DNA of 64,000 nucleotides from Escherichia coli. GTDB lineage: Bacteria > Pseudomonadota > Gammaproteobacteria > Enterobacterales > Enterobacteriaceae. The notes under the pieces are model-generated. The model searched no databases. It was not told where the DNA came from and saw only the letters and a list, made by a program, of their open reading frames with translations. The stretch lies in the NCBI RefSeq assembly GCF_001677475.2, contig NZ_CP015229.1; one strand, 5' to 3'. A program made the position numbers and the translations under genes. Below, piece by piece: positions 47,916 to 63,423 of this stretch (the stretch's first letter is position 1; each line of letters starts with the position of its first letter).

Positions 47916-48962
47916 TTAACGTCCTGCTTTCAGCTTCTGATAATACTCTTCATAAATGCTGCTGGCTGCGCCAACGTCATTCTGCCATTCACCATTTTTA
48001 ATGGTTTCAGCATCCGGGTAGAGCGTTTTATCGTTCGCCACTTCCGGGCTTAACAGCTTACGCGCCGCAAGGTTTGGCGTTGGATAACCGATAGTTTCGG
48101 CAACCTGTTTTGCCACATCCGGGCGCAGCAGGAAGTTGATCAGTTTCAGCGCGCCTTCTTTGTTTTTGGCATTCGCCGGAATTGCCAGGCTGTCCATCCA
48201 GAAAATGCCGCCTTCTTTCGGCCACACGACGTCAATTGGTGTACCCGCCTGGCGTGCAACGAAAGCAGAACCGTTCCAGATCATGCCGAGGTTAACTTCG
48301 CCTTCCATGTACGGGTTAGCCGGGTTATCGGAGTTAAACGCTGCGACGTTTGGCATCAGTTTTTTCAGCTCGTTATATGCAGCTTCAATCTCTTTCGGAT
48401 CGGTGGTGTTACCGGAATAGCCCAGCTTACGCAGCGCCATCTGGAACACTTCACGGGCATCGTCGGTCAGCAGCAGGCTGCCTTTGTACTCAGGCTTCCA
48501 CAGATCGGCCCAGCTGGTAACGGATTTCGGATCCACCGCATCACCGTTAACGCCAATCGCCGTCGCACCCCAGATATACGGAATGGAGTAGTCGTTATTC
48601 GGGTCAAAAGGCTTGTTGAGCATGTCTGGATCGAGATTGCTGAAGTTCGTTAACTTCGACTTGTCGATCTTCTGGATCATCCCTTCTTTACGCATTTTAT
48701 CGACGTAATAGGTTGAAGGAACCACCAGGTCATAGGCACCGTCTTTGTACGTTTTCAGCTTGGCATACATGGTTTCGTTCGACTCGTAAGTCGAATAGAT
48801 AACCTTAATACCGGTTTCTTTGGTGAACTGTTCAAGCAGTCCTGGCGGCACGTACTCGGTCCAGTTGTAGAAATACAGCGTGTTGTTGTCATCGGCGTGA
48901 GCGGCGCTCATGCCCAGTGCCAGAGCACCCGCCGCGAGCAGGTGGCGTGACCATTTTTTCAT
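47916..48962 (-). CDS. potD: Spermidine/putrescine ABC transporter periplasmic binding protein
   Basis: 348-aa ORF starting MKKWSRHLLAAGALALGMSAAHADDNNTLYFYNW. Confidence 0.97.
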   Translation of the reverse strand: MKKWSRHLLAAGALALGMSAAHADDNNTLYFYNWTEYVPPGLLEQFTKETGIKVIYSTYESNETMYAKLKTYKDGAYDLVVPSTYYVDKMRKEGMIQKIDKSKLTNFSNLDPDMLNKPFDPNNDYSIPYIWGATAIGVNGDAVDPKSVTSWADLWKPEYKGSLLLTDDAREVFQMALRKLGYSGNTTDPKEIEAAYNELKKLMPNVAAFNSDNPANPYMEGEVNLGMIWNGSAFVARQAGTPIDVVWPKEGGIFWMDSLAIPANAKNKEGALKLINFLLRPDVAKQVAETIGYPTPNLAARKLLSPEVANDKTLYPDAETIKNGEWQNDVGAASSIYEEYYQKLKAGR

Positions 48963-49753
48963 TTAACGTCCCCTGTGTTACCTTTCGTTTTATCACGAGC
49001 AATAAGCTGGCTGGCAATAACCATCACCAGCGACAGCACCAGTAATATGGTTGCCAGCGCGTTAACTTCCGGCGATACGCCGACTTTGACCATCGAATAA
49101 ATTTTTAACGGCAGAATTTCATAACTTGGTCCGGTGACGAACGAAGAAACTACCACATCGTCCATCGACAGGGTAAAGCTTAACACCCAGCCCGCCGCTA
49201 CCGCTGGCATTGCCAGTGGCAGAATGATTTTTCGCAGAATGGTAAATTCGCTGGCACCGAGATCTTTCGCCGCTTCCAGCATTCGCACGTCAAAACCTTT
49301 CAGGCGCGAATACACTGTCACCACCACAAATGGCAGGCAGAAGGTGATATGCGAGAACAGCAGCGACCAGAAGCCAAGCTGAATACCCAGCAGCATAAAC
49401 AGCACCAGCAGCGAAATCGCCATCACGATATCTGGTGACATCATCACTACAAACAGCATTCCGCTAACGAACGGCTTACCACGAAAGCGATAACGGTACA
49501 GTGCAACTGCCGTCAGTGAACCGATAAGCGTAGCAAACGTCGCCGAAAACACCGCCATTGTTAGTGAATGCTGCGCTGCCTGTAACAGGCTGTCGTTGTT
49601 CATCAGCAGGCTATACCATTTGGTGGTAAAACCCTGCCAGTTGATGCCAAAGCGCGAGCTGTTAAAGGAGTTCACAATCAAAATAATGATTGGGATATAC
49701 AGGTACGCGTAGATAGCGGTCATAAAACCGCCGCGAAGCAGTCGACCGATCAT
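48959..49753 (-). CDS. potC: Spermidine/putrescine ABC transporter permease PotC
   Basis: 264-aa ORF starting MIGRLLRGGFMTAIYAYLYIPIIILIVNSF, full length. Confidence 0.97.
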   Translation of the reverse strand: MIGRLLRGGFMTAIYAYLYIPIIILIVNSFNSSRFGINWQGFTTKWYSLLMNNDSLLQAAQHSLTMAVFSATFATLIGSLTAVALYRYRFRGKPFVSGMLFVVMMSPDIVMAISLLVLFMLLGIQLGFWSLLFSHITFCLPFVVVTVYSRLKGFDVRMLEAAKDLGASEFTILRKIILPLAMPAVAAGWVLSFTLSMDDVVVSSFVTGPSYEILPLKIYSMVKVGVSPEVNALATILLVLSLVMVIASQLIARDKTKGNTGDVK

Positions 49754-49776
49754 TCGAGTTCCACCTTCTTATTCAT
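49750..49776 (-). pseudogene. potB: 3'-terminal remnant of potB at the prophage junction (attL core lies here or just upstream)
   Basis: The minus-strand frame ends ...(M)NKKVELE then TGA, overlapping the potC ATG. This matches the PotB C-terminus as I recall it (...SRLLNKKVELE). The frame is closed upstream by TAA at 49873-49875, so only the tail of potB is present. Confidence 0.6.
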
Positions 49777-49819
49777 AAGGCGGGACACTTTCAGGATTTT
49801 GAATTTATTCAATTTTTTC

Positions 49820-49856
49820 CTTTCTCCAAAATCTCTCCAAAACGTTTCCCCAAAAC
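49820..49856. repeat. Three direct repeats in the phage arm next to attL; candidate Int arm-type sites
   Basis: Plus strand reads tctccaaaa (49823-49831), tctccaaaa (49834-49842) and ttccccaaaa (49846-49855). Confidence 0.4.
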
Positions 49857-49919
49857 TAGGCCACGCATTTTACAACACTTTTTTCCTGAGATGGTGACGG
49901 ATATTCCATATGGTGTTTG

Positions 49920-51038
49920 TCAAATAACCAACTTAACCCATTCCTGACCTCGAGTATCGTTATAGCGATCGGTGGTTGCCTGGACTTTATGTCCTAGTAA
50001 TGTTTTTGTATCGATACCCTGTGCACGGTACAGCCGTTCTGATAGAGAGCGTTGTTCATGAAATGTTGGCGGAGTTTTTCCTGCTGGTGGAATTATCCCA
50101 GCCAGATCCCGTGCTTTGGCAAAGTAGTCGCTCAGGTTGTCTTTACTCATCGACTTCGGTTGTTTCTGGTGCCGACTATGGATTAGATATGGACTTAATA
50201 TTCTGTCTCGGCACCCATCAATAACTTCTTTTAACGTTATCCCAATGGCATCACAGCGTAGTGTAAGCGGTAACGCCAGACGCATTCCGGTTTTTCCTTG
50301 GGTGATATGCAAGTGTTCGTTCCACACATCTGAAAAACGCATGTGGCAAATGTCATCACGGCGCTGACCAGTAACAATCGCAAGAAGCATTGCGTTACGG
50401 ATAAAGTGTTTTTCAGGCGTTGCGTTGTAAATTTTTTGCCAGTCTTCCAGGGTGAGTCTGGCTCTGGTTACTTTAGGGATTGGTTTACGGGTAGCCTCCG
50501 GAGGATTCCATCCAGGAGGAACTTCCCCTGCATGCTGTGCTTCTTTATAAATATCAAGCCATAATCCGCGATTTACTCTCGCTGTGCTGACCATGTCTTT
50601 ATCCAGCCACTCATCCAGTATTAATGCAAAGTCTCTTACTTCCAGTTCTTTCAATGGGTGGTTTCCCAGACGGGAAACCAGGAATGCAGCCATTCGCGCT
50701 TTTTCTTTGTGGGTTGTAGCTGCAATATCTCCATTTTTCAGGCGCGCGTCCTGTATTTTCAGATATCGATCAACCCATGCCTTTAATCTGATACCCCGAC
50801 GTTTTGTTGCTGATGGACTTTCATCAATTTTGCGCATGAAATATTCAGCTTCTGCTGCAGCTATTCGCTGATTGGCTGTGGAAGCGATTTTTTCTGCCTT
50901 ACCTTTGTCTGTTCCGAGTCCGTGAAATTTTCCAGTCACAGGATTTTTATACTGGTAGTAAACTCTGCCAGTTCTGCGATCAAACTTTTCGTAAAGACCG
51001 GCTACGTCAGTGCTGTTTTTTCGTGGCCTCGGTGACAT
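49920..51038 (-). CDS. int: Tyrosine integrase (lambda Int family)
   Basis: 372 aa. It has an N-terminal arm-binding-type segment (YYQYKNPVTGKFHGLG) and C-terminal catalytic residues (...HEQRSL..., GHKVQATTDRYND with the Tyr). Confidence 0.93.
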   Translation of the reverse strand: MSPRPRKNSTDVAGLYEKFDRRTGRVYYQYKNPVTGKFHGLGTDKGKAEKIASTANQRIAAAEAEYFMRKIDESPSATKRRGIRLKAWVDRYLKIQDARLKNGDIAATTHKEKARMAAFLVSRLGNHPLKELEVRDFALILDEWLDKDMVSTARVNRGLWLDIYKEAQHAGEVPPGWNPPEATRKPIPKVTRARLTLEDWQKIYNATPEKHFIRNAMLLAIVTGQRRDDICHMRFSDVWNEHLHITQGKTGMRLALPLTLRCDAIGITLKEVIDGCRDRILSPYLIHSRHQKQPKSMSKDNLSDYFAKARDLAGIIPPAGKTPPTFHEQRSLSERLYRAQGIDTKTLLGHKVQATTDRYNDTRGQEWVKLVI

Positions 51039-51276
51039 GAGTTAAAATCTCCTTCAGTGCATCATCATCGCCAGTATGAATTTCCGGCGCAATTCCCGTT
51101 TCACCAGGCCCAACAAATACTGCTCGGCGATCTATCAGCCAACGCCCACGAATTTTTTGTGGTCTTGGAACGATGTATCCTAGTTTTCCGTATTTCACCA
51201 GGGTAGTGTTTGTTATTGGGAGACTGAACCGTTTTGGTTTCCACTCGTCGAGCGTTATCAGGTACTGTTCGCTCAT
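51007..51276 (-). CDS. xis: Excisionase-like protein
   Basis: 89 aa starting at MSEQYLITLDEWKPKRFS...RWLIDRRAV, a lambda-Xis-like pattern. It overlaps the int start. An SD GGAG lies upstream. Confidence 0.7.
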   Translation of the reverse strand: MSEQYLITLDEWKPKRFSLPITNTTLVKYGKLGYIVPRPQKIRGRWLIDRRAVFVGPGETGIAPEIHTGDDDALKEILTHVTEATKKQH

Positions 51277-51337
51277 GGCTATCACTCCGGAACGCGCCAG
51301 TTGCAGAATATCAACGACAACTGGCGACGGTTGAACA

Positions 51338-53809
51338 TTAAAAATCAGCCTGATTCGGGATCAGTTTTTGCCAGATAGCTGAAACGTATTTTGCCTGGTG
51401 ACGAGCGTCATCAAGTGCATTATGGCGCTCACCTTCGAATGGGATAGCAGTTCTGGCATCGAAGTCTATGGTTTTCCCCAGCTCAACGATTGTGCGTACA
51501 TCGCGATCGTTGTAGTAACGCCACGGGCAGGGGATCCCCTGCCGTTCGTATGAACGGCGCAAAATCGTGTTGTCGAAGTTGGCTCCATTTCCCCAGACCT
51601 GAACAAAAAACTCACCGGAGTTTTCGGCGATAAATTCCCGCAATTGCAGTAGTGCATCATCTAACGGGATTTCATCGGTCATAATGGCAGACTGCGCTTC
51701 ACGTGATTGCTTCAGCCACCATTTAATGACGTCACGATCAATGACTCCGCCAGCAGTATCCAGATCGATGGTCTTGCTAAATTCCGGTCCCATATCACCG
51801 GTTTGCGGATCGAAAAATATTGCACCTATTGAGATAATCGGGGCATCAGGATTTTTTCCCATGGTTTCAAGGTCGATCATCAGATGAATCCCCGCTCTGC
51901 TGGTGGATGTGAGATTATGATGACTGTTCATCTTAATTAAGGGATCTGTCGCCTCGCCAGTTTTATTATCGCTGGCGTGATGCTGATTGCCGCCAGGGTT
52001 CTCCTTGTGTGGATGTTCAGCGCCTTCCATTTCCTCCGGATCATTTTCCTGAACTTCAGGCTGATTCTCTTCATCGAATATTTCCTGGTATGTTGCGTCA
52101 CCCATCACCGCGCCACAATCAGGGCAGTTGCCGCCACCGCTCTGACCGCAGGCTGTGCAGACTTTTTCCGGTTCCTGTTGCGCTACTGGCTCAGGTTGTT
52201 TCGTTTCTGGCTCGTTTTGTTGCGTATTTGGGCTGTTTTGTTCCGCTTTCTGGTCGTTCTGTTCCGTTTCTTGCTGGTTCTGGTTCACAGAATCGCGGGT
52301 TTCAATCCCCTTCACCCATTTCGGATCATTCGGATCGCTAATCCCTGCAACAAATTCACCACGTGATACTGCAAGCAGTTCATCGGCGTCATGCTGGCTG
52401 ATATTGGCTGCCTGCATAATTTTGTTTACTTCGTCAGCGGTAACTTTTACCGGCCCTGGTTGTGCGGTCGTGTCAGATGCACCAGTATTTTGTTGTGAAC
52501 CTGAGTATGTACCGTTTTTGCGGGCGAAATATTCTTCTTTCGTGATTTCAGTAGCCCCGGCAGCCAGTGCCTTATCCAGACCAGAAAGTTTGTTTGCGCG
52601 ACCGTATTTTTCGCCATCCTTGTCGGTGAAGAGGAAGTAGAATGGCCCCTCACGCTCTACAGATGGTTCGACTTCCACTTTGCATTCGGTTTTTTCGTTG
52701 TCCGGAATTGCCGTTTCCACTGCATCAGTTTCTGGTACTGGCGACGAGAGAGTATCAGTTGCGCTCTGATTTCTTCCTTCATCTTCAAACACGCCCTTTG
52801 TAGTCAGGTATTCAGTAATGTATTTGTTCAGTGCCACAGGGTCTTTGTGAATGTCGATCGGACGTTCACGAACAAGGCCAAAAATAGTCTGGCGGTCGTA
52901 GCGAAGGGCATCAGGCTGTTTGCGCATTGATGCCGAGATACGCTTCCAGTCTTCGCGGTCGTTGTCGATAACTTCATTTTTTGCCCAGCGATGGATGCTG
53001 CCATCAATGTTTCCGACATCCACATCACCAGGCCAGAGAGCGTAGGCCAGTTCGTCATCCAGTGTTTTCCATGTCTGCTTGTATTCGCGATGAGTGGCAG
53101 CAATGACCGGGCTGATTTTTCCTGTTGAATTTTCAGTGTGCTGTTGATTGGCTCTGGCGCGGGCGAGATCAACAACAGACGTGTATTTTCCGGTTTCCTT
53201 GCGTTCACCTTCGCGACGTTTTTTCCAGATGCGCATCTCTGCCTGAATTTCGGGCCATTTGGCACCAGGCTTACATTTATGCTTAACCCACCCGATGGCA
53301 TGCAGCTTAAGCTCCGGATACATGGCGTTAACTTCTGGCATTTTCATCAACGCTTCAACGATATGTCCGTCGAATGTTGCCATGTCTTCCTGCAACAATT
53401 CCTGCGCGCTAATCACCATATCAACGGTGATGTTTTCACATGTACCGAACTTAACCAGGACCGCGTTCTGTACTTCAAGGGACAGCTTGTCAAAATTGAC
53501 GTTAATAGGATCGGATTCTGGTTCGACCGGAATAAAGGAAGCGGATTCCTCATCCCAGCGGTTTTCCTGCATATATTCGGTATCCCAGGAGTCGATAGCA
53601 GGGCGGGGCATGCCGGGTTTATCTTCGCAGACAAGAAATTTATAAGCGCAGTCCTGAGCAGCAGGATATTGCTCCAGGAATTGCCAGGTAAATTTGGCAC
53701 GGGCGCGGCGTTCATCACCGGCTTCAATGGCAGTGGCTACAGCAACTGCGCCCTCTTCTTTTATTGCCTGTTCGTCCGGAATGGCGGCGCAAATAAAGAC
53801 TTTACTCAT
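51338..53809 (-). CDS. 823-aa multidomain protein: YdfE-like N-terminal region, low-complexity linker, zinc ribbon, C-terminal DEDDh 3'-5' exonuclease domain
   Basis: The C-terminus carries exonuclease motifs MIDLETMG, WGNGANFD and HNALDDARHQ. A CTACGQSGGGNCPDCG ribbon lies at about 52108-52162. The N-terminus MSKVFICAAIPDE... resembles my recollection of K-12 Qin YdfE. Confidence 0.8.
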   Translation of the reverse strand: MSKVFICAAIPDEQAIKEEGAVAVATAIEAGDERRARAKFTWQFLEQYPAAQDCAYKFLVCEDKPGMPRPAIDSWDTEYMQENRWDEESASFIPVEPESDPINVNFDKLSLEVQNAVLVKFGTCENITVDMVISAQELLQEDMATFDGHIVEALMKMPEVNAMYPELKLHAIGWVKHKCKPGAKWPEIQAEMRIWKKRREGERKETGKYTSVVDLARARANQQHTENSTGKISPVIAATHREYKQTWKTLDDELAYALWPGDVDVGNIDGSIHRWAKNEVIDNDREDWKRISASMRKQPDALRYDRQTIFGLVRERPIDIHKDPVALNKYITEYLTTKGVFEDEGRNQSATDTLSSPVPETDAVETAIPDNEKTECKVEVEPSVEREGPFYFLFTDKDGEKYGRANKLSGLDKALAAGATEITKEEYFARKNGTYSGSQQNTGASDTTAQPGPVKVTADEVNKIMQAANISQHDADELLAVSRGEFVAGISDPNDPKWVKGIETRDSVNQNQQETEQNDQKAEQNSPNTQQNEPETKQPEPVAQQEPEKVCTACGQSGGGNCPDCGAVMGDATYQEIFDEENQPEVQENDPEEMEGAEHPHKENPGGNQHHASDNKTGEATDPLIKMNSHHNLTSTSRAGIHLMIDLETMGKNPDAPIISIGAIFFDPQTGDMGPEFSKTIDLDTAGGVIDRDVIKWWLKQSREAQSAIMTDEIPLDDALLQLREFIAENSGEFFVQVWGNGANFDNTILRRSYERQGIPCPWRYYNDRDVRTIVELGKTIDFDARTAIPFEGERHNALDDARHQAKYVSAIWQKLIPNQADF

Positions 53810-53902
53810 TTTGTTTTAACCTCATTACAGATTTAAGGGTGAACAAATCCCTGCCATTGCTGGCATATAAAAATGAAACCGGATATTAATTACGGTGCTG
53901 TT

Positions 53903-54094
53903 TTAAAGTCCTGCCGGTATTTCGTTATTATTAGTGTGAGTAGTTTTATCTACCGGATAACAGTTACCGGGAATTTTTTGTTCTGCTGCTGCAGCCATGC
54001 ATTCTTTCATTGAACCGTATAAGCCAGTCACCAGCTCAAGAGATTCGCCGGAAACAAGATAAACTGTCAGAACGAGTGCAAATGTTGTATTCAT
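53903..54094 (-). CDS. ydfD: YdfD-like small membrane (lysis-associated) protein
   Basis: 63 aa starting MNTTFALVLTVYLVSGESLELVTG. It has an ATGA overlap with the dicB homologue, as in the Qin dicBF operon. Confidence 0.75.
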   Translation of the reverse strand: MNTTFALVLTVYLVSGESLELVTGLYGSMKECMAAAAEQKIPGNCYPVDKTTHTNNNEIPAGL

Positions 54095-54279
54095 TGTTTA
54101 TATCCTTTTTGCAGCAGGTCCAGACGAGCCAGCATTGAAGGAATGCATACTTCATTTAACAGGTCCTGCTCGAGTTTTCTCTGCTTAATGGCGTCTTCAA
54201 TAAATGTTTTGTCTCCAGTGATAACGCCAATTTCGAAACGAAGTTCAGACGTGCTGGCATTACATGATAACTTTTCCAT
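54091..54279 (-). CDS. dicB: DicB-like cell-division inhibitor
   Basis: 62 aa from the internal start MEKLSCNASTSELRFEIGVITGDKTFIEDAIKQRKLEQDLLNEVCIPSMLARLDLLQKGYKQ. It shares FEIGV, EDAI and SMLARL blocks with K-12 DicB. An SD GAGGA lies upstream. Confidence 0.8.
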   Translation of the reverse strand: MEKLSCNASTSELRFEIGVITGDKTFIEDAIKQRKLEQDLLNEVCIPSMLARLDLLQKGYKQ

Positions 54280-54449
54280 TATCGCGTCCTCAACAATGAA
54301 TTTTGTGATGCGGTGCCTGGTGCCTCCAGGTGACGTTAACCAGTTAACAATTAACGCAGGATACAGAGAATCCACCCATAACACTGTTTTTGGTTTTTAC
54401 TGTTCCGCGTGCGCTGAGCCGCATTCACCGCATCACAAAATTCACTTTT

Positions 54450-54508
54450 AAAAAAGGGCGGCAGAGCAGTCACGGAGTAAAACTGATACCGCCAAATGTC
54501 ACCAGAAT
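54450..54508 (-). ncRNA. dicF: DicF small RNA (ftsZ-targeting)
   Basis: The minus strand reads attctggtgacatttggcggtatcagttttactccgtgactgctctgccgcccTTTTTT. This is nearly identical to the K-12 DicF sequence I recall, including the terminator hairpin. It lies 170 nt upstream of dicB, as in Qin. Confidence 0.88.
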
Positions 54509-54821
54509 ATTGATAACAGAGGGCGTTGTAGCGGGGTTGTCACTTAAGCGTATGGTCAACCTGACAACCCGGTGTCCTCAACGGGGAAAGGCGTCCCTCC
54601 CACCCCCGCCATACTTACCGCCGCGCCATTTCGCGGGTCGCCACAACCGGAAGCGCACGGTCGAATTAAATTTAACGACACCGTGCAGTGAGACGAACTT
54701 CGCCGTGCGCTTTCGTGTTGTGTGCCTGCTTTTAACCACGTCAGGCGAGGTGGTTTCCGTCATTCCCCAACGACAGGAAATCTGTATAATCTGGGTATCC
54801 CCAACGATCCAAGGAAATCAT

Positions 54822-54923
54822 ATGACAGAGCAAAGAGCACAAGCAGGTGATGGTGTATGGACCGGGATGATATTCTTGACAGAATTTTTTATGGCTATTT
54901 TCTTGAGCAACTGTTTTCTGTAG
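54822..54923 (+). CDS. Candidate 33-aa upstream ORF with a hydrophobic C-terminus (speculative)
   Basis: MTEQRAQAGDGVWTGMIFLTEFFMAIFLSNCFL. A strong SD AAGGAA lies 5 nt upstream, and TATAAT (54785-54790) about 32 nt upstream. It overlaps the start of the 148-aa ORF in another frame. Confidence 0.3.
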   Translation: MTEQRAQAGDGVWTGMIFLTEFFMAIFLSNCFL

Positions 54924-55303
54924 CGACTGGTCGTCTCGATAAACTTCTCTCAGTAGTGAGTATTATCCTCGGTTCATCTGTCATTGGCGGATTCATTCCG
55001 GAAATTTCTGGCGTTTTTATTGTTGTGATCGCAACCGTCCAAACGATTTATGGATTCGGACAAAAGTCAGGTAATACCATGAGAAAATCCGCAGAATATT
55101 TGCAGCTTTTTGATGATGCAGAAAAATATTCTGATTCGGAATTGAAAATTCAGTTAAAAACTCTGGAAAAAACAGATGATCATATTTGGTCATCACTTAA
55201 AGATATTGCGATCTTAAAAACACAGATCAAAATAGGCGTCTCCATCGAACAACAAGAGAAGTTGCCCACAAAATCCAAATTGATGCGATTTCTTTGTGGT
55301 TAG
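54857..55303 (+). CDS. 148-aa two-transmembrane-helix protein of unknown function (moron, opposite to the dicBF operon)
   Basis: A long ORF in AT-rich DNA, where stop codons should be frequent. An SD AGGTGA lies upstream. Two adjacent hydrophobic helices (LLSVVSIILGSSVIGGF and ISGVFIVVIATVQTIYGF) are followed by a charged helical tail of about 80 aa. Confidence 0.7.
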   Translation: MDRDDILDRIFYGYFLEQLFSVATGRLDKLLSVVSIILGSSVIGGFIPEISGVFIVVIATVQTIYGFGQKSGNTMRKSAEYLQLFDDAEKYSDSELKIQLKTLEKTDDHIWSSLKDIAILKTQIKIGVSIEQQEKLPTKSKLMRFLCG

Positions 55304-55392
55304 GAATATCCAGATTGTTAAAGAGCATGCCGGAGGTTTATCCGTGTCCGGCGCACGCACTTCATCTGCGGAGAACTACTTGAGCTCATTGG

Positions 55393-55608
55393 TCAGTAGT
55401 TTTCAATCACTCGCGAAACGTTTAATGCCGCGCTTTTTGCCAGAGTGGTAATATCCTGCTCCGCTGACACCAGTTCTTTAGAGAGGCGCTCTTTGTAGTC
55501 AGCGGCCTGCTTCAGGTCATTAATGGCGCGTATCTTTCCGCACATCCATTCGTAAATTTCATCCTCGGTATAGTCTGGTGCGATGATGACGGGTTCTCGT
55601 TTCTGCAT
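55393..55608 (-). CDS. ydfC: YdfC-like protein
   Basis: 71-aa ORF starting MQKREPVIIAPDYTEDEIYEW, in the position of ydfC in the Qin dicBF operon. Confidence 0.65.
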   Translation of the reverse strand: MQKREPVIIAPDYTEDEIYEWMCGKIRAINDLKQAADYKERLSKELVSAEQDITTLAKSAALNVSRVIENY

Positions 55609-55637
55609 ACTGATTCCTCGCGGTGCCGCTTCGCTTA

Positions 55638-55766
55638 TCAGCCGTTAGATTTTGCCGAACTGGAAAGCGCCTGTTTAAACTCACTGAAGCTGAGAGCTTC
55701 TTCGCCTTCGGCAAGGTCTTCGAAGTATTCTTCGTAAGCCTTTTCCATGATTGCGTCGAAATCCAT
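55638..55766 (-). CDS. ydfB: YdfB-like 42-aa protein
   Basis: Manual translation gives MDFDAIMEKAYEEYFEDLAEGEEALSFSEFKQALSSSAKSNG. It is below the ORF-track size cutoff and replaces the implausible basic 70-aa ORF 55559..55771. Confidence 0.7.
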   Translation of the reverse strand: MDFDAIMEKAYEEYFEDLAEGEEALSFSEFKQALSSSAKSNG

Positions 55767-55767
55767 A

Positions 55768-55923
55768 TCACTCACCTGAATTTCTTTCCAGCCAGCGACG
55801 AGCGCCAGTTTCGGTTTTAAACGTTTTACTTTTGGTATACGTCATCGCGGTGAATGTGCCGTCCTGGTTGGGAAACACGCCGTACACCAGAGATTCGTTG
55901 TTGCCAAGATCGATAGTATCCAT
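55768..55923 (-). CDS. ydfA: YdfA/YdaF-like (DUF1391) 51-aa protein
   Basis: Internal start MDTIDLGNNESLVYGVFPNQDGTFTAMTYTKSKTFKTETGARRWLERNSGE, with an SD GGGGAAATGAGG upstream. Confidence 0.7.
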   Translation of the reverse strand: MDTIDLGNNESLVYGVFPNQDGTFTAMTYTKSKTFKTETGARRWLERNSGE

Positions 55924-56104
55924 GTTGACCTCATTTCCCCTTAACGCTGGGGTAGCGGAACTAAAAACCTGCTGCGCTGTTATACAAAGTGTTCCCGCCG
56001 TCATGTTCATACGCCTCGGGCTGGCTACTTAATCCCTGACCACTACCGGGTAACTCTAGGTATTGCCCTGTATTGTGTGGGACGGGATGGGTTGGTATGG
56101 GAAA

Positions 56105-56147
56105 ACTATAGGAAATGCCTAATTGCTTGTCAATAGGCTATGCCTAA
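56105..56147 (-). promoter_or_regulatory. PL-like promoter with OL operators
   Basis: On the minus strand: TTGACA (56128-56133), 17-nt spacer, TATAGT (56105-56110). Operator-like 15-mers ataggctatgcctaa (56133-56147) and ataggaaatgcctaa (56108-56122) overlap it. Confidence 0.6.
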
Positions 56148-56241
56148 TGATTTGGGTGCGACCTAATAGGTGATGGTTTGTGGGAGAGGTAGTAGGAGTT
56201 AACTAACGGGAACTAGGAATTTCCCGTCGGACCATATAAGT

Positions 56242-56718
56242 TTAAGTTCCTGTCTTGGTGATGTTCTGGCTTTTCCGTTTTGATTCTTGATTTTTCAGAT
56301 AGTTAGCTACCTTCATTTCCATTGCGGCAATGTAGGCGCGAACGTCATGATCAACCCAACTAGGCTCCGTAGCATTTCCAGATAAGAGGAAAGCCACAAT
56401 TGCTCTTTTTTCATCAGAGGCGGCTTGATAAAGGCTGTTTATGTCTAAAAGTTCACTTTTTGTATCTGAAGTGGATGGGGTTGGTATGGGGTATTCGTTA
56501 AGCCCCCAATGCTCTGGACCAACCACATCAGAAAAGAAACGCCATAGTTCTGGAAGTTTGTCTTTACTTATCGAACCTTTCTTAATCCAGTCATGGATTG
56601 ATGGTGGTTGGACTTTGAAATGACGTGCGATTTCCGCCTTTGATTTGACGGCTCCTGATGCAATTTTTTTGTTAATGGCCTGCTCTATCGCTCGGCCTAA
56701 GTCTTTACCACTAAGCAT
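56242..56718 (-). CDS. racR: Prophage repressor, RacR-like
   Basis: 158 aa starting MLSGKDLGRAIEQAINKKIASGAVKSKAEIARHFKVQPPSIHDWIKKGS (HTH). It is divergent from the ydaS/ydaT homologues, as in Rac. Confidence 0.8.
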   Translation of the reverse strand: MLSGKDLGRAIEQAINKKIASGAVKSKAEIARHFKVQPPSIHDWIKKGSISKDKLPELWRFFSDVVGPEHWGLNEYPIPTPSTSDTKSELLDINSLYQAASDEKRAIVAFLLSGNATEPSWVDHDVRAYIAAMEMKVANYLKNQESKRKSQNITKTGT

Positions 56719-56746
56719 TGCTTAATAGTCTCCTATGCGCATCGCG

Positions 56747-56815
56747 TTAGGCAATACCTACTCTCGAAGCGTTAGGCATAGCCTATTGACAATCACATTA
56801 GGCTAAGCCTAATAT
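56747..56815 (+). promoter_or_regulatory. PR-like promoter with three OR operators
   Basis: TTGACA (56786-56791), 18-nt spacer, TAATAT (56810-56815). The 15-mers are ttaggcaatacctac (56747-56761), ttaggcatagcctat (56772-56786) and ttaggctaagcctaa (56798-56812), spaced 25-26 bp. Confidence 0.6.
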
Positions 56816-56842
56816 TATTGTGTGTTTTTTGGAGTTCATTCG

Positions 56843-57166
56843 ATGAAAAAAGATAACTATTCATTCAAACGAGCTTGTGCTGTTGTCGGTGGGCAATCAG
56901 CAATGGCTAGGCTTTTAGGTGTATCTCCTCCAAGCGTAAATCAATGGATCAAAGGTGTACGTCAGTTGCCTGCTGAGAGATGTCCTGCGATTGAACGAGC
57001 AACAAAAGGTGGTGTCCTGTGTGAAGAACTTCGTCCTGATGTTGATTGGACATACTTACGACGCTCGTCATGTTATTCGCAGAATATGTCGATGAAGCAA
57101 CCAAATGACGAAAACGATCATACCCGAAGCATCAAGAGGCAAATGATTCATGAAAATCAAACATGA
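56843..57166 (+). CDS. ydaS: Cro-like HTH protein, YdaS-like
   Basis: 107 aa from MKKDNYSFKRACAVVGGQSAMARLLGVSPPSVNQWIKG. An SD GGAG lies 8 nt upstream. Confidence 0.75.
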   Translation: MKKDNYSFKRACAVVGGQSAMARLLGVSPPSVNQWIKGVRQLPAERCPAIERATKGGVLCEELRPDVDWTYLRRSSCYSQNMSMKQPNDENDHTRSIKRQMIHENQT

Positions 57167-57575
57167 GCATATCCGCATGGCGATGAATGCCTGGGCATAC
57201 CCTGATGGTGAGAAAGTTCCTGCAGCTGAAATAGCCCGGACTTATTTCGAACTGGGAATGACGTTCCCGGAACTGTACGACGACAGCCATCCGGAAGCCC
57301 TGGCCCGTAATACCCAGAAAATTTTCCGTTGGCTGGATAAAGACACCCCTGATGCTGTTGAAAAAATGCAGGCTCTGTTACCGGCGATCGAAAAGGCGAT
57401 GCCGCCTTTGCTGGTGGCCCGTATGCGCAGCCACAGTTCTGAGTATTACCGTGAGATTGTCGAACGGAGGGATCGGTTGGTGAAAGATGTCGACGATTTT
57501 GTTGCGTCAGCGGTTGTTTTGTATGACCAGATGAATCGCGGCGGCCCGGCAGGAAATGCCGTGGTGATGCACTAA
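57150..57575 (+). CDS. ydaT: YdaT-like (CII-position) protein
   Basis: 141 aa starting MKIKHEHIRMAMNAWAYPDGEKVPAAEIARTYFELG. It follows ydaS, as in Rac. Confidence 0.75.
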   Translation: MKIKHEHIRMAMNAWAYPDGEKVPAAEIARTYFELGMTFPELYDDSHPEALARNTQKIFRWLDKDTPDAVEKMQALLPAIEKAMPPLLVARMRSHSSEYYREIVERRDRLVKDVDDFVASAVVLYDQMNRGGPAGNAVVMH

Positions 57576-57597
57576 CAGCACGGTGTTCGGGGGTTTT

Positions 57598-58566
57598 ATG
57601 AGCAGCAAGCTTCATGGTCTTGTCTGGGAAGGATGCGCCTTCACCGGCATGATCTTATCCCGGGTGGCAGTGATGGCCCGTCTTGCAGACTACAGCAATG
57701 ACGAGGGCGTGTCATGGCCTGCTATTGAAACTATCCGGCGTCAGATCGGTGCAAGAAGTGAATCCACAGTGAAATCGGCTATTGCAGAACTGGCGAAAGA
57801 GGGCTGGCTGACGAAGGAAGAGCGTAAGGTCGGTGGGCGTAATGTAAGCAATATCTATCGGCTTAATGTGGAAAAACTCGAAGCAGCAGCTGCGGCGGCG
57901 CGTGAGTCATATAAACCGAAAAGAAAAATTAGCCCGGCAAAAAATGACCCGTTAACAGTTGACCCGTCAAATATTGACCCCTCAACGGTTGACCCGTCAA
58001 ATTTTGATGGATCAACTGTTGATAAAAAACTGCCGATTAGGGGGACGATGATTGACCCCGATCAGTCAGTATTAAAACCTGATCCGTCAGATGAAAGATC
58101 TTCTTGTCCTGACGTTTCACTGCCGGACAAAAAACAATCATCACCAGTTGAGCGATTTCTGGAGAAACACCCGGATGCGCATACCTGGAATGTGCAGAAG
58201 CGACAGTGGGGTACCCGTGAGGATGTCGCCTGTGCGCAGTGGATTTGGGGACGGGTTGTTGCGTTGTATGAACAGGCCGCCAGTGATGATGGTGAGGTAT
58301 CACGCCCCAGAGAACCTAACTGGACGACCTGGGCGAATGATGTGCGCATGATGCGTATGCTGGATGGACGTAGTCACCGGCAGATTTGTGAAATGTTTGG
58401 GCGTGTCCAGCGGGATTCGTTCTGGGTAAAAAACATCATGAGTCCGGCAAAACTCCGGGAAAAATGGGATGAGCTGGTTATTCGTCTGGGGCGTTCGCCT
58501 GTACAGCGTTGCGTGAATCACATTTCTGAACCGGATACCGAAATTCCGCCGGGGTTCAGGGGGTAA
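57598..58566 (+). CDS. Replication initiator O-like protein (YdaU-like, N-terminal wHTH)
   Basis: 322 aa from MSSKLHGLVWEG. It contains the internal iteron array, which encodes DPLTVDPSNIDPSTVDPSNFDGSTVD. Confidence 0.75.
   Translation: MSSKLHGLVWEGCAFTGMILSRVAVMARLADYSNDEGVSWPAIETIRRQIGARSESTVKSAIAELAKEGWLTKEERKVGGRNVSNIYRLNVEKLEAAAAAARESYKPKRKISPAKNDPLTVDPSNIDPSTVDPSNFDGSTVDKKLPIRGTMIDPDQSVLKPDPSDERSSCPDVSLPDKKQSSPVERFLEKHPDAHTWNVQKRQWGTREDVACAQWIWGRVVALYEQAASDDGEVSRPREPNWTTWANDVRMMRMLDGRSHRQICEMFGRVQRDSFWVKNIMSPAKLREKWDELVIRLGRSPVQRCVNHISEPDTEIPPGFRG
57945..58019. repeat. Five tandem 15-bp iterons (candidate phage origin) inside the O-like gene
   Basis: tgacccgttaacagt, tgacccgtcaaatat, tgacccctcaacggt, tgacccgtcaaattt and tgatggatcaactgt, at exact 15-bp phasing. 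Degenerate copies occur at 58053 and 58080, with an A-rich stretch in between. Confidence 0.7.
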
Positions 58567-58608
58567 GTGCTGATTTGAGGTCATGAAGTTATTTTCTCAG
58601 GAGAGTTT

Positions 58609-59010
58609 ATGGGGGCTATTTATACCGAAGAACAGCGGGAAAGGTTACAGCGTCACATCGTTGACCTTGTACGTAAAAACGGGCGTATGACAATGCCACA
58701 ACTGGCATCGGCAACATATGCTTCACATGATTCCATTCGCCGGTACCTGAAGATGCTGGTGAGCCAGGGCGAAGTGTATGTTGTCAGCGGAAAAGGGGTA
58801 TTCCTTTCAGAGAGAGTTTACCGTGAATGGCTGGCAAGTTCGGCAAAAAAATCAAGGGTTATCCGCAAACCAGCACAAAAACAGGGTAAGGCCGGAGTAC
58901 AACCCTACGACCGGCACCAGAACGTAATTTGCCGGGAATGTCGTAACAGCGAATCAATGCAGCGGGTACTGGCTTTTTACAGGGGTGGATTTCAGGAGCT
59001 CGTATCGTGA
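58609..59010 (+). CDS. Hypothetical winged-helix-like protein
   Basis: 133-aa ORF starting MGAIYTEEQRERLQRHIVDLVRKNGRMTMPQLASATYASHDSIRRYLKMLVSQGEVYVV. Confidence 0.6.
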   Translation: MGAIYTEEQRERLQRHIVDLVRKNGRMTMPQLASATYASHDSIRRYLKMLVSQGEVYVVSGKGVFLSERVYREWLASSAKKSRVIRKPAQKQGKAGVQPYDRHQNVICRECRNSESMQRVLAFYRGGFQELVS

Positions 59011-59315
59011 AAAAGTGGGTGCGTGCCGAGATACTGATTCTACGGCAGTGTGCGGGAACAATGACGGTGGAATGCATCGGGATGCTTATTGGTCGTAGTG
59101 AGGCTGCGGTCAGAACGAAAGCGCGGGAACTGGGTATTAGTATGATGTTACGGGGTGATTATCACCAGTCAGCAAAATATCCGCAGAGTGATATTGAGCT
59201 GGCGCGACAGCTGCATCAACGTGGCGTGTCCAGGAGAGAAATCGCCAGAAAATTTGGAATGCCGCTGCGCACAGTGAATAACTACGTTTATTTCGACAGG
59301 AGGGTGTCTGCGTGA
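59007..59315 (+). CDS. Hypothetical HTH protein (two sigma-region-4-like HTH repeats)
   Basis: 102-aa ORF containing IGMLIGRSEAAVRTKARELGIS and REIARKFGMPLRTVNNYV. Confidence 0.6.
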   Translation: MKKWVRAEILILRQCAGTMTVECIGMLIGRSEAAVRTKARELGISMMLRGDYHQSAKYPQSDIELARQLHQRGVSRREIARKFGMPLRTVNNYVYFDRRVSA

Positions 59316-59557
59316 AAATCCTGTATCAGGATTACGGCCCGGTGGGACAGGTGGTTATCAGCAGTACTGTAATGGAGTTCCGGAAGCATAACCGTGTGGT
59401 GGATGCAGTGCTGTTAGCCTGTCCGGGGATATCGGCGAGCCGTGCAGGTGTGTTTTTTATGAAGACGAAGTTATATGGCAGTACAGCGTGGATAAAGAAG
59501 GCGTACCGGGTAGCGTTGCAGGAGGTAAACAGTGAGCGAATCGGCAACCATTCTTGA
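59312..59557 (+). CDS. Hypothetical phage protein
   Basis: 81-aa ORF translationally coupled to its neighbours. Confidence 0.5.
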   Translation: MKILYQDYGPVGQVVISSTVMEFRKHNRVVDAVLLACPGISASRAGVFFMKTKLYGSTAWIKKAYRVALQEVNSERIGNHS

Positions 59558-60020
59558 TATGTCCTGTGGCAGTCGTATGTTCTGGTTCGATAAGAATGAC
59601 GACCGGGCGATATTTAGCGATATCAGAAAAGAAGAGCACACATTATGTGATGGACGACGCCTGATAATTAGCCCTGACCTGATAGCAGATTTTCGTGCAT
59701 TACCATTTGCAGACGCATCGTTTCCGGTTGTTGTATTCGACCCTCCGCATCTTGAGCGTGTTGGTGATAACGCCTGGATGGGAAAGAAATATGGACGGCT
59801 GAATAAAGATACCTGGCGTGATGATTTGCGGCAGGGATTTAAAGAAGCCTTTCGTGTGTTGTGGCCACACGGTGTTCTGATTTTTAAATGGAATGAAACG
59901 CAAATACCTGTCCGCCAGATATTGGCACTAACCGACGCGAAACCAATCATCAGCCAGCGCACCGGTAAGAACGATAAAACACATTGGATTATTTTTGTGA
60001 AGGAAGCGACCAGTGGGTAA
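59532..60020 (+). CDS. Small SAM-dependent methyltransferase, putative orphan DNA (N6-A/N4-C) methyltransferase (GTG start)
   Basis: 162 aa with a motif I-like ILDMSCGSRMF and a motif IV-like VVFDPPH. A strong SD AGGAGG lies upstream of the GTG. There is no adjacent endonuclease gene. Confidence 0.65.
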   Translation: MSESATILDMSCGSRMFWFDKNDDRAIFSDIRKEEHTLCDGRRLIISPDLIADFRALPFADASFPVVVFDPPHLERVGDNAWMGKKYGRLNKDTWRDDLRQGFKEAFRVLWPHGVLIFKWNETQIPVRQILALTDAKPIISQRTGKNDKTHWIIFVKEATSG

Positions 60021-60267
60021 ATCAAAATGCCAGGTTTATGGCAACAAGATAGAACCGTGTACGGCACTGGCAAACTCCCTTGAGCATGATGCTGAATACA
60101 CGACGCGAAAAGGTCTGCTGATATACGAAATCTGGAATGAGAGTTTAACTCGCGGCCCTGATTTGGTGATGTTGCGATCCGGTGAATTTTCTAAATCACC
60201 AGTTCGGGTTTCATTTTTCCCGTTCTGCGGTGAAAGTCTGAAAACGTGGGAGAACAGAAATGAATGA
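60013..60267 (+). CDS. Hypothetical phage protein
   Basis: 84-aa ORF with a GTG start and an SD AAGGAA 7 nt upstream. Confidence 0.5.
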   Translation: MGKSKCQVYGNKIEPCTALANSLEHDAEYTTRKGLLIYEIWNESLTRGPDLVMLRSGEFSKSPVRVSFFPFCGESLKTWENRNE

Positions 60268-60571
60268 AATTAGAGAAATACCAGTAGAACGTGATGAATA
60301 TGGCTGCTGGACACATCCAGAATATGAAAAATTCTGTGACGGTCGGGAATATATTTCAACGGAAGAGTTTAACGCCTGGATGAAGGAAAATAATCTTCAG
60401 TGGACTATTTGCAGCATGGATGAAGATTATTTAAATCCGGTTGCAGATGACCCCGATATTTCCGCCTGGGAACCGGAACGACCAGAGGGCGAAGGCTGGT
60501 TTATTAGCTCCATTCATGATACTGAAGATGGTCCGGTTTGTGTCTGGTTGCGAAACAAGGTGATGGCATAG
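60260..60571 (+). CDS. Hypothetical acidic phage protein
   Basis: 103-aa ORF coupled to its neighbours. Confidence 0.55.
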   Translation: MNEIREIPVERDEYGCWTHPEYEKFCDGREYISTEEFNAWMKENNLQWTICSMDEDYLNPVADDPDISAWEPERPEGEGWFISSIHDTEDGPVCVWLRNKVMA

Positions 60572-60874
60572 ATGAGAATAGAAAAAGCGAAAGCACAGCT
60601 CAGGATAATGCTTGCTGGTCCGGCTGCGAGTTATATGACACATTCACCAGCCATAAAGAAGGTTCTTGATGAACTGGAAGCCAAAGACAAGCGCATTGCA
60701 GAACTGGAGGCGAGGGAAATCCAGTTACCTGCTGGCTTCGACCTTCGATATGGACACCCGATAAATGCTGATGAGCGACATGTGATGATACCTAAAGAAA
60801 ATGGCAACTGGATTTATCGGACTGACTTAGAGCACGTACTACGTGTTGCAGGGATTCGAATTAAAGGAGACTAA
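60572..60874 (+). CDS. Hypothetical phage protein (coiled-coil segment)
   Basis: 100-aa ORF; the ATG immediately follows the previous stop. Confidence 0.55.
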   Translation: MRIEKAKAQLRIMLAGPAASYMTHSPAIKKVLDELEAKDKRIAELEAREIQLPAGFDLRYGHPINADERHVMIPKENGNWIYRTDLEHVLRVAGIRIKGD

Positions 60875-60875
60875 C

Positions 60876-61232
60876 GTGGAAATAAAACCAGAAGATGAGT
60901 TAAGTAATATTGTTTTATTTCCGGTAAAAGAGGATGACCCACGTAATCAGGTTAATTTTCTTTATGAGCCATCGGAAAGACCATATTGTCATCACGCCTC
61001 TGTCCGGGTTGACGAAAAAGAGCGTCAGGTCCGCTGTAAAATCTGCGGTGCAGTTGTGGAGCTATTTGACTGGATGCTCTCTGTGGCGAAAAGAGAAACC
61101 AGACTGGCAGATGATGTAAGGATCTTGCGCCAGGAGGAACGGGAAAGGCGGAGAAATATAGAAAAGCTAATTCAGATTGAGCGTAACGTGAAAGCGCGGA
61201 TACGCAGGGTGACAAAATCCAGAACTGAATAA
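60876..61232 (+). CDS. Hypothetical phage protein with a CxxC motif (KICGAV) and a basic coiled-coil tail (GTG start)
   Basis: 118 aa from VEIKPEDELS. An SD AGGAG lies 7 nt upstream, and the start is just after the previous stop. Confidence 0.5.
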   Translation: MEIKPEDELSNIVLFPVKEDDPRNQVNFLYEPSERPYCHHASVRVDEKERQVRCKICGAVVELFDWMLSVAKRETRLADDVRILRQEERERRRNIEKLIQIERNVKARIRRVTKSRTE

Positions 61233-61280
61233 TTAAATTTAGCTCTGTTAAAAATTTAATCCTTAACCGGAGGTATATCA

Positions 61281-61493
61281 ATGTCAAACGCACAGAAAGT
61301 TATTAACGCTGAAAAATATAACGAGTGGGTGAAAAAGTTCTCAGAGCAGATTTTTAAAATTACTGGCGACGAGAATGCGGCAAAAAATGAATTAGAGCCG
61401 TGGACACCTGAAGGTGTCGACCCAAATTATTGCTGGTGGGATGTTGATCCAGTTGATGCTGCAAATGAAGCTATGAGTTATCACAACGATTAA
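61281..61493 (+). CDS. Hypothetical acidic phage protein
   Basis: 70-aa ORF with an SD GGAGG upstream. Confidence 0.5.
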   Translation: MSNAQKVINAEKYNEWVKKFSEQIFKITGDENAAKNELEPWTPEGVDPNYCWWDVDPVDAANEAMSYHND

Positions 61494-61528
61494 TGTCAGG
61501 AGGCCGCCCGAAAGGGCGGTAATGAAAA

Positions 61529-62362: not shown

Positions 62363-62471
62363 GCCGGCCCGATGCATTTGCAGGCGTTGCTATAGCTATT
62401 GCTTTTCCAGTATATGTTATTTGTCGGTGGGGGTAAAAACGTTCGCCGGAATTCACACCAAGGGAGGGAAT

Positions 62472-62576
62472 ATGTCGGATGATATTTCACTGGTAATGGA
62501 AGGCGCTCTGGCTGTTATTGCTGTTGTGGGTGTTTACTGCCTGGTTGTGTTTTTGATGGATCGCCTGGGGAACTGA
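62472..62576 (+). CDS. Candidate 34-aa single-TM peptide
   Basis: MSDDISLVMEGALAVIAVVGVYCLVVFLMDRLGN, with a strong SD AGGGAGGGAA upstream. It is below the ORF-track cutoff. Confidence 0.4.
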   Translation: MSDDISLVMEGALAVIAVVGVYCLVVFLMDRLGN

Positions 62577-62711
62577 ATTCATTCCGTATGGGAATTCCCA
62601 TATCGGGCAAAAACGGTTTGCTGTAAAGCGAGAGTTAAGTAGAATTGCTGCGGGTGCTTGAGGCTATCTGCCTCGGGCATGCCGCCGTAAGGCAGACAGA
62701 GAAAAGCCCCA

Positions 62712-63422: not shown

Positions 63423-63423
63423 C

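Follow-up and report, generated by a model that had tools for sequence, protein, structure and literature searches.

Phage 21 and the e14 element integrate inside icd, a monocistronic gene, and supply a phage-borne replacement for its 3′ end of about 50 codons. In phage lambda, attB is intergenic (gal-bio) and no operon is split, while attP places P′1-3 on the int-proximal arm and P1/P2 on the other arm. Regulatory-switch prophages, which practice 'active lysogeny', are represented by Listeria phi10403S in comK and by B. subtilis skin/SPbeta. In Escherichia coli, a prophage located in potB is said to have been named Phi-CFT073-potB by Lloyd and colleagues in 2007. The potB integration locus has already been published under the name Phi-CFT073-potB (PMC2639426, PMC3573123, PMC4632033), as well as under the name PP_potB in STEC O157:H7 and O145:H28 (PMC9997748, PMC7067040). 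In none of the searchable Phi-CFT073-potB and PP_potB papers is the att core defined or potCD expression addressed.

The locus described here lies in a 64,000-nt stretch of E. coli DNA, referred to as the window. It is the published Phi-CFT073-potB/PP_potB integration site, which is already known and very common in E. coli. What is added to the known site is the precise 14-bp core, the anatomy of the arm, and the phage-supplied PotB tail, all of limited practical value. The transcription of potCD in lysogens is a testable question raised by this otherwise ordinary site.

Layout and occurrence of the potB insertion

The potCD side of the insertion and the adjoining part of the prophage comprise the following features.

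47916..48962, minus strand: potD, spermidine/putrescine periplasmic binding protein, complete, 348 aa (ORF, K-12 identity, RefSeq annotation at homologous loci)
48959..49753, minus strand: potC, permease subunit, complete, 264 aa (ORF and K-12 identity)
49750..49761, minus strand: native potB 3′ remnant GAA CTC GAA TGA, or E-L-E-stop, equal to K-12 potB codons 273-275 plus stop
49754..49919, minus strand: int-potC spacer, 166 bp, the int-proximal att junction (ORF limits, terminator and promoter scans, folding, arm alignment)
49920..51038, minus strand: lambda-type tyrosine integrase, 372 aa (Pfam and alignment to lambda Int)
51007..51285, minus strand: excisionase, 92 aa (PF07825 at 23 bits, which is exactly the cut-off; RefSeq homologues are annotated as excisionase)
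51338-53809, same strand as potCD: exonuclease, 823 aa (Pfam PF16473)
49762..64000, no strand assigned: left part of a lambdoid prophage with int, xis, exonuclease, and early region (segmental similarity to the SCU-176 and CFT073 potB prophages up to 64000)

PotC and PotD each share 100% amino acid identity with the K-12 proteins, and the 30 nucleotide differences from K-12 (5 in potC and 25 in potD) are all synonymous. An earlier reading of the window, the sequence-only reading, had held that potC is complete and still preceded by the last codons of potB. This agrees with the ORF at 49753..48959, whose ATG shares bases with the potB stop codon TGA at 49752-49750 in an ATGA overlap; the frame ending at this TGA translates to a product that closes with ILKVSRLMNKKVELE. 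The native potB sequence, estimated at 25-30 nt, measures 26 nt with the stop included, as identity with K-12 potB extends from 49775 down to 49750. The 5′ side of 49775 in the potB-closing frame is phage sequence, with an in-frame TAA at 49872..49870 rather than at 49873-49875, a 3-nt slip in the earlier account. The next gene is, as proposed, a phage integrase on the same strand (51038..49920), and the intervening spacer (49919..49754) is exactly 166 bp.

The integrase is homologous to lambda Int over its full length. It contains an N-terminal arm-binding domain (PF09003 Arm-DNA-bind, residues 1-64, E = 3.7e-21, 75 bits against a cut-off of 22) and a catalytic domain (PF00589, residues 194-363, E = 1.2e-17), and phmmer matches it to the lambda Int structure 1z1b at E = 9e-54. 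Residues R226, K249, H327, R330, H350, and Y359, all six catalytic positions, lie opposite identical lambda Int residues, which we take to be R212, K235, H308, R311, H333, and Y342. As in lambda, xis adjoins and overlaps int, here with the excisionase ORF covering the int start by 32 nt. Unlike lambda, the element uses a different core sequence, a different arm-site consensus, and a different chromosomal target.

Of 5426 complete E. coli genomes, 1600 share this junction, CFT073 included, at a coverage of at least 80% of the 1101-nt query; the empty site occurs in 3800. A prophage thus occupies this position in about 30% of complete genomes of the species, among them CFT073 and some O157:H7 and O145:H28 lineages, and physically divides the main operon for spermidine uptake in all such strains. 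The duplication of potCD that had been named as grounds for doubting an insertion is absent; there is no second copy, with a median of one place per genome among the complete E. coli genomes. In CFT073, potD, potC, the 166-bp spacer, int, xis, and the exonuclease follow one another in the identical order. The spacer matches at 195 of 196 nt, and 366 of the 373 aligned integrase positions, made up of 372 residues and the stop codon, are the same. In SCU-176, the same int-potC junction (99.6% identity) is followed by a lambdoid prophage of approximately 48 kb, potB with a SELDD ending, and potA. The window ends inside the prophage at 64000; the potA/potB junction is known from related genomes (SCU-176), and the int-proximal junction was compared with CFT073. 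The prophage body is mosaic, and past approximately 52450 the window has only patches in common with the CFT073 and SCU-176 prophages. The element shares its insertion locus with Phi-CFT073-potB/PP_potB, and its junction and integrase with CFT073, which was compared directly, whereas its body differs from that of Phi-CFT073-potB beyond the same point.

The att core, its arm, and the phage-completed potB

The features of the junction, from the core toward int, are as follows.

49762..49775, minus strand: 14-bp att core TGAATAAGAAGGTG, potB codons 268-272 (comparison of the window, the SCU-176 far junction, K-12 attB, and attP contigs)
49776..49797, minus strand: phage-arm codons mimicking the potB end, I-L-K-V-S-R-L-M against native Y-W-R-A-S-R-L-L (translation)
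49799..49812, minus strand: palindrome TTGAATAAATTCAA, at the same position in five related arms
49821..49855, minus strand: three tandem direct repeats TTTTGGRGARA at 49855-49845, 49842-49832, and 49831-49821 (pattern search)
49864..49875, minus strand: conserved box TTGTAAAATGCG, the outer edge of a conserved arm of approximately 125 bp (alignment of six arms)

The core is the sole block identical across attB, attP, and both prophage junctions, the far junction being that of SCU-176 (core copy at L002 7316-7329). It spans potB codons 268-272, 12 nt ahead of the potB stop codon, and contains the potC Shine-Dalgarno sequence AAGGTGG. In split-site genomes, the two K-12 potB-potC halves overlap by exactly 14 bp (query 379-392), and the K-12 alignment to the window stops at 49775. 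Alignment of the two junctions, which the sequence-only reading had put forward as a check, thus returns a shared 14-bp segment. Two IMG/VR contigs contain the predicted attP unbroken across 1848 nt (97-98% identity), with diverged potB-like sequence flanking the core on both sides. Two further records, ON470612 and ON470619, were rejected as sources of an isolated-phage attP, as both include host potC, potD, ymfA, and ycfZ and are prophage predictions from clinical isolates. In lambda convention, the int-proximal junction is attL (B-O-P′), and the potB remnant at 49750..49761 stayed on the potC side after recombination.

Because a single junction is visible in the window, the integrase might be thought to stand beside potC through an error of assembly or some unrelated rearrangement, with no site-specific integration at all. 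This is refuted, with next to no probability left to it, by the recurrence of the junction in 1600 complete genomes, the duplication of the 14-bp core at both ends, the contiguous attP in viral contigs, and the empty site in 3800 genomes. Junction frequency, duplicated core, and contiguous attP likewise bear out the original claim of a prophage in the 3′ end of potB.

Site-specific integration at the core accounts for both junctions. The lambda-type tyrosine integrase inserted the prophage at TGAATAAGAAGGTG in potB; the potA-potB side thereby gains a phage-supplied SELDD end that keeps PotB full-length, and the last three original potB codons remain joined to potC-potD, adjoining int. In related genomes, the prophages span 44-48 kb, and potCD is separated by that distance from the potA promoter. 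It had been anticipated that potA and a potB with a phage-supplied 3′ end would lie at the other end of the prophage, and in genomes with an identical junction they are found there, approximately 48 kb away. At the SCU-176 far junction, potB ends in NKKV-SELDD-stop, where the native gene ends in NKKV-ELE-stop, and the resulting protein of 287 aa is annotated as intact. In SCU-176, the phage arm continues the potB frame without a shift and ends it with a stop codon of phage origin, and the same tail is present in the attP contigs. PotB(SELDD) is accordingly annotated as a whole protein, and from its predicted translation it would be a full-length, slightly altered PotB in the lysogen.

This arrangement is similar to that of phage 21/e14 at icd, in that the core lies near the 3′ end of a coding gene and attP carries a diverged gene end (here ELE is changed to SELDD). 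Unlike the roughly 50 codons replaced in icd, the potB segment replaced amounts to only 3 codons. A further difference is that potB stands in second place in an operon of four translationally coupled genes, and the two genes downstream are detached from their promoter. The prophage also resembles active lysogeny elements, in principle only, in lying within a host transcription unit that excision would restore. However, the interrupted gene potB is repaired by the phage, and the potB element is not assigned to the regulatory-switch family.

The arm beyond the core has a recurrent anatomy. TTTTGGRGARA matches three times in the 64-kb window, always in the spacer, against 0.12 matches expected by chance, and one exact copy is present in the SCU-176 distal arm (L002 7446-7456). 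The repeats are also kept in the arms of Citrobacter and Pantoea relatives, which likewise sit directly upstream of potC. Considered as a sequence pattern only, three tandem repeats in the arm next to int, with one or two in the opposite arm, are similar to P′1-3 and P1/P2 of lambda, and the tandem repeats probably serve as arm-type sites for Int, in the layout of lambda P′1-P′3. The palindrome TTGAATAAATTCAA may be a further protein-binding site. The in-frame TAA at 49872-49870 falls inside TTGTAAAATGCG; in one aligned relative (L006), 860 bp of inserted sequence lies between int and the arm, and the match to the other arms picks up again a few bases upstream of TTGTAAAATGCG. The potB-like stretch at 49776..49797 recurs in the Citrobacter and Pantoea arms and in the attP contigs. 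A mini-ORF encoding MNKKVELE plus stop (49776-49750) from an ATG in the arm, considered as a means of preserving translational coupling to potC, was rejected as a conserved feature, the codon at the place of this ATG in the Citrobacter and Pantoea arms being CTG.

Transcription of potCD beyond the insertion

Because only 26 nt of native sequence precedes potC, any potC transcript in the lysogen starts in phage DNA. This is logically sound: every such transcript must begin within the prophage. The reported internal RpoD site of potABCD lies between potA and potB, which is upstream of the insertion (PMC3946193).

The spacer itself offers little by way of signals. The terminator scan of its 166 bp found no intrinsic-terminator-like site, its folding is no better than that of shuffled sequence (z = 0.13), and no Rfam family matches it, in keeping with the earlier statement that no terminator separates int from potC. 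A strict consensus promoter scan from 48900 to 51400 returned 0 sites. Two weak sigma-70-like candidates are present in the spacer, TTGGAG-16-TAAATT (49829..49802) and TTGAAT-16-AAGTGT (49812..49785). The top position-weight-matrix scores within the spacer are 8.0-8.7; the window has approximately 1.5 matches per kb and strand that score 8 or more, so that the spacer matches are at background frequency. A better match lies inside int (TTGCCA-19-GATAAT, 50122..50092, score 10.7), though its 19-nt spacing is suboptimal. Neither the spacer nor the int matches were accepted as promoter evidence. The -35-like hexamers of the weak candidates overlap the arm-type repeats, and TTGAATAAATTCAA overlaps the -10-like hexamer TAAATT; conservation of the spacer promoter matches in relatives would be explained equally by Int binding sites.

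The most likely source of potCD transcription, in our view, is weak, near-constitutive entry from the int region or the arm, and transcription tied to induction is less likely. Transcription of this kind would pass into potC through a spacer that holds nothing to stop it, and potC would then be translated via the preserved ribosome-binding site within the core. A lambdoid prophage attL in the 14-bp potB core, combined with potCD fed by such weak transcription, is the joint explanation that we hold with good confidence.

The opposite outcome is that the insertion is polar, with potC and perhaps potD essentially silent in the lysogen and the resulting loss of PotABCD spermidine uptake tolerated through synthesis and other importers. 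In its favor, no consensus sigma-70 promoter is found from the xis region to potC, the spacer candidates are only at background level, and int of lambda-type phages is normally untranscribed in the stable lysogen owing to pL and pI control. Polar silencing is nonetheless unlikely. The phage retains an in-frame completion of potB that would be purposeless with the other subunits off, since uptake requires all four Pot proteins, as established by the Igarashi and Kashiwagi laboratory. In the lysogen studied, PotC and PotD show no amino acid change from K-12, although this perfect conservation gives no date for the insertion. Intact potC and potD also stand next to decayed remnants, with a truncated integrase and most of int missing, in two other genera, represented by Citrobacter pasteurii and Pantoea alvi. 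In addition, RNA-seq of CFT073 has found potD significantly differentially expressed between the wild type and a kguR mutant, and its mRNA is therefore detectable in this lysogen (PMC8716947). The CFT073 signal could arise from a promoter within potC and is uninformative on potC itself, and the available part of the supplementary-table text of that paper lists no pot entries. Taken together, intact PotC/PotD and the potD mRNA in CFT073 argue weakly against potCD silencing. A literature search returned nothing direct on potCD expression in potB lysogens, on internal promoters there, or on CFT073 transcription-start maps. If potCD were silenced or re-wired, polyamine transport would differ between strains on a wide scale, a point usually overlooked when K-12 regulation is extrapolated to other strains.

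The sequence-only reading had instead proposed that potCD expression may depend on int read-through or on a promoter in the arm, which would couple polyamine uptake to prophage state. In the form weighed here, read-through from phage early-left/int transcription would be the main source of potCD mRNA, and uptake would track induction or Int expression. It is true that int, xis, and the exonuclease share the potCD strand with no terminator ahead of potC, and the overlap of arm-type repeats with -35-like hexamers means that Int occupancy could in principle affect the candidates. However, potD mRNA is present in the uninduced CFT073 lysogen and depends on the host regulator KguR (PMC8716947), and the Citrobacter and Pantoea remnants lacking most of int still have intact potCD. 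Int read-through is also not conserved, as in a Citrobacter meridianamericanus relative int and the arm are kept apart by a separate rha-like gene and by a hairpin followed by a T-run, which looks by eye like a terminator. The literature search returned no experiment for or against such coupling. The computed evidence does not support coupling of polyamine uptake to prophage state, and potCD expression mainly by read-through is distinctly improbable; KguR-dependent potD mRNA without induction and intact potCD beside remnants make a strict dependence on the state of the prophage somewhat less likely.

A variant of weak entry from the arm assigns the arm of approximately 125 bp two roles. The arm would bind Int and would also carry a weak sigma-70 promoter (49829..49802) that re-drives potCD, and Int occupancy would modulate uptake, given that the -35 element falls within an arm-type site. 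This dual role is very doubtful. Were it true, the phage would offset its own polar effect, as it does with the repair of potB, and Int would modulate uptake in approximately 30% of strains.

Prophage insertion in potB

In the window, potC and potD follow the int-proximal junction (attL in the lambda convention) of a lambdoid prophage integrated in the 3′ end of potB.

47916-48962, minus strand: potD, 348 aa
48959-49753, minus strand: potC, 264 aa
49754-49919, minus strand: int-potC spacer, 166 bp
49762-49775: att core TGAATAAGAAGGTG (7316-7329 in the SCU-176 far-junction locus; potB codons 268-272), shared by both junctions and attB
49821-49855: three tandem TTTTGGRGARA repeats, in the spacer
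49920-51038, minus strand: integrase ORF, 372 aa
51007-51285, minus strand: 92-aa ORF overlapping the start of the 372-aa ORF
51338-53809, minus strand: exonuclease ORF, 823 aa

The frame ...ILKVSRLMNKKVELE* ends at a TGA overlapping the potC ATG and closes upstream at an in-frame TAA at 49872..49870; the sequence-only reading had described this anatomy exactly, apart from a 3-nt slip that put the TAA at 49873-49875. In K-12, the empty-site reference, the native potB-potC junction reads ...tactggcgcgcttctcgtttgctgaataagaaggtggaactcgaATGAtc. The match to K-12 begins at 49775 and continues downward, leaving a potB remnant of 26 nt including the stop codon, in agreement with the 25-30 nt first estimated. 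Above 49775 the sequence is not that of potB, yet a potB-like S-R-L-M is still encoded. PotC and PotD share 100% protein identity with K-12, the 5 and 25 nucleotide differences all being synonymous. The E. coli arm also has ATG just before the core, where native potB has CTG, creating an 8-codon mini-ORF (MNKKVELE*, 49776-49750, minus strand) that terminates on the potC ATGA overlap. As a conserved feature this mini-ORF was rejected as probably incidental, since Citrobacter and Pantoea arms carry CTG at that codon.

The prophage runs off the window at 64000, and evidence on its far end comes from related genomes. In SCU-176, whose junction is 99.6% identical, int is followed by a lambdoid prophage of ~48 kb (xis, exonuclease, dicB, a CI/Cro pair, antiterminator, lysis genes, terminase, head, tail, and tail fibres) and then by potB, potA, and pepT. 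There, potA and potB lie beyond the far prophage end, where they had been placed from the sequence, ~48 kb from int. This potB is annotated as intact and equals K-12 PotB through V272, after which SELDD-stop replaces ELE-stop; the phage-supplied 3′ end suggested earlier is therefore correct. Overall, the junction observation is confirmed and the structural reading supported. Of 5426 complete E. coli genomes, 1600 matched at ≥80% coverage a 1101-nt query spanning the int 3′ part, the spacer, and the potC 5′ part. The median was one location in each, so there is no duplication of potCD, a feature that had been named as evidence against the reading.

Alignment of the window junction with the SCU-176 far junction, as had been proposed for defining the core, gave 14 nt, the sole block of exact identity common to both junctions and attB. 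When an 800-nt K-12 potB-potC probe was compared with all complete genomes, it was uninterrupted in 3800, and in the remainder it split into two pieces overlapping at query 379-392, which is exactly the core. An attP was predicted by joining the int-proximal arm of the window across the core to the SCU-176 distal arm. A 31-nt string across this junction is present in three IMG/VR viral contigs, two of which match the 1848-nt predicted region over its entire length at 97-98% identity, indicating that uninterrupted attP exists as phage DNA. Judged by its translation, ...ILKV(S/L)(R/H)LMNKKVSELDD*, attP is a divergent version of the end of potB, and the core lies midway along it. Two GenBank 'phage' records, ON470619.1 (vB_EcoS-813R8) and ON470612.1 (vB_EcoS-640R1), contain host potC, potD, ymfA, and ycfZ; they were rejected as virion genomes and regarded as prophage predictions with over-extended borders.

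Phage 21 and e14 likewise replace the 3′ end of their target gene, icd, with a phage-borne copy. The device is the same at potB, with one difference: potB is internal to an operon, so insertion detaches two downstream genes. The integration locus is already known, as Phi-CFT073-potB is a 44-kb prophage in potB (PMC2639426, PMC3573123, PMC4632033) and PP_potB is among the listed prophage integration loci of O157:H7 clade 8 (PMC9997748) and O145:H28 (PMC7067040). In the literature searched, no paper was found on the att core of this prophage or on potCD expression in lysogens.

Integrase and attachment arms

Integration follows the standard lambda-type mechanism. The 372-aa protein contains the lambda Arm-DNA-binding domain (PF09003, 3.7e-21) and the catalytic domain (PF00589, 1.2e-17), and aligns over nearly its full length with the lambda Int structure 1z1b (E = 9e-54). 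Its R226, K249, H327, R330, H350, and Y359 lie opposite identical residues of lambda Int, which in lambda numbering are R212, K235, H308, R311, H333, and Y342. The 92-aa ORF scores exactly at the Pfam excisionase-family cut-off, and its RefSeq homologues are annotated as excisionase. In the 823-aa 'exonuclease', PF16473 (3′-5′ exonuclease) is confined to the last ~180 residues; the rest, which includes a long acidic Q/E/P-rich stretch, matches no Pfam family.

Apart from the three repeats, TTTTGGRGARA has no match in the 64 kb (0.12 matches expected in all), and the SCU-176 distal arm has one exact copy ~117 bp from the core. These repeats are putative arm-type Int sites, in a layout that parallels lambda attP, which has P′1-P′3 on one arm and P1/P2 on the other.

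Integrase homologues (68-88% identity) lie immediately upstream of potC in Citrobacter sp. Cu233, C. meridianamericanus, C. pasteurii, and 'Candidatus Pantoea alvi'. Across these arms and that of the window, the alignment covers, in order, a TTGTAAAAT(G/T)CG box, the three repeats, a TTGA(A/T)TA(A/T)(A/T)TTCAA palindrome, and the core. In the C. meridianamericanus locus (L006, 3617-4480), an insert of ~860 bp separates the integrase stop from the conserved arm. This insert, which looks like a moron at the outermost end of the prophage, carries a rha-like ORF on the potC strand and a hairpin with a T-run behind it (ACCGCGTTTGCGGTTTTTTTT) that resembles a terminator by eye only. Remnants in C. 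pasteurii (L009, 2501-2623; last 41 int codons) and 'Ca. Pantoea alvi' (L008, 2501-2884; ~146 3′ int codons) adjoin tail-fibre debris, with arm, potC, and potD intact.

Transcription of potCD in lysogens

Native DNA before potC amounts to the core plus 12 nt, so any potC transcript in the lysogen must start in prophage DNA. No site in 48900-51400 passed a strict sigma-70 scan, and potCD may possibly be silenced. Indirect pointers suggest instead that potCD is not dead in lysogens: perfect protein conservation, intact potC and potD beside decayed remnants, and in-frame completion by the phage of PotB, which is known only to serve as a PotABCD transporter subunit. Strain CFT073 was confirmed to carry the same int-potC junction. 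There, potD was significantly down ~2.5-fold in a kguR mutant by RNA-seq (PMC8716947), which implies that potD mRNA is present.

The best guess is that weak, constitutive transcription would enter potC from the int region or the arm. Read-through coupled to prophage induction is less likely; the terminator scan found none in the spacer, as first noted by eye. Spacer RNA structure is no stronger than that of shuffled sequence (z = 0.13), and the spacer matches no Rfam family. Two promoter-like matches were found by position-weight matrix.

49829..49802, minus strand: TTGGAG-16-TAAATT, score 8.7
49812..49785, minus strand: TTGAAT-16-AAGTGT, score 6.9

In the window, each strand has about 1.5 matches per kb that score ≥8. 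Both matches keep their position in the relatives' arms, a conservation equally explained by their overlap with the putative Int sites and the palindrome. That the arm doubles as an Int-modulated potCD promoter is improbable, and the regulatory coupling of potCD to prophage state proposed in the sequence-only reading is mildly disfavoured.

Other features of the strain

A six-ORF chaperone-usher fimbrial operon (13144-19129, minus strand), including usher (PF00577, 5e-198), PapD-type chaperone, and fimbrial subunit, lies between fabF (11844-13085) and pabC (19485-20294), which are neighbours in K-12. At 46000-48000 (cobB 3′ end, ycfZ, ymfA), identity to CFT073 is 84-91%, versus 95-99% for flanking core genes, and the best match to 44000-52400 among the 5426 complete genomes is 97.1%. 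The strain thus carries an unusually divergent ycfZ-ymfA allele or comes from a lineage that lacks a closely related complete genome.
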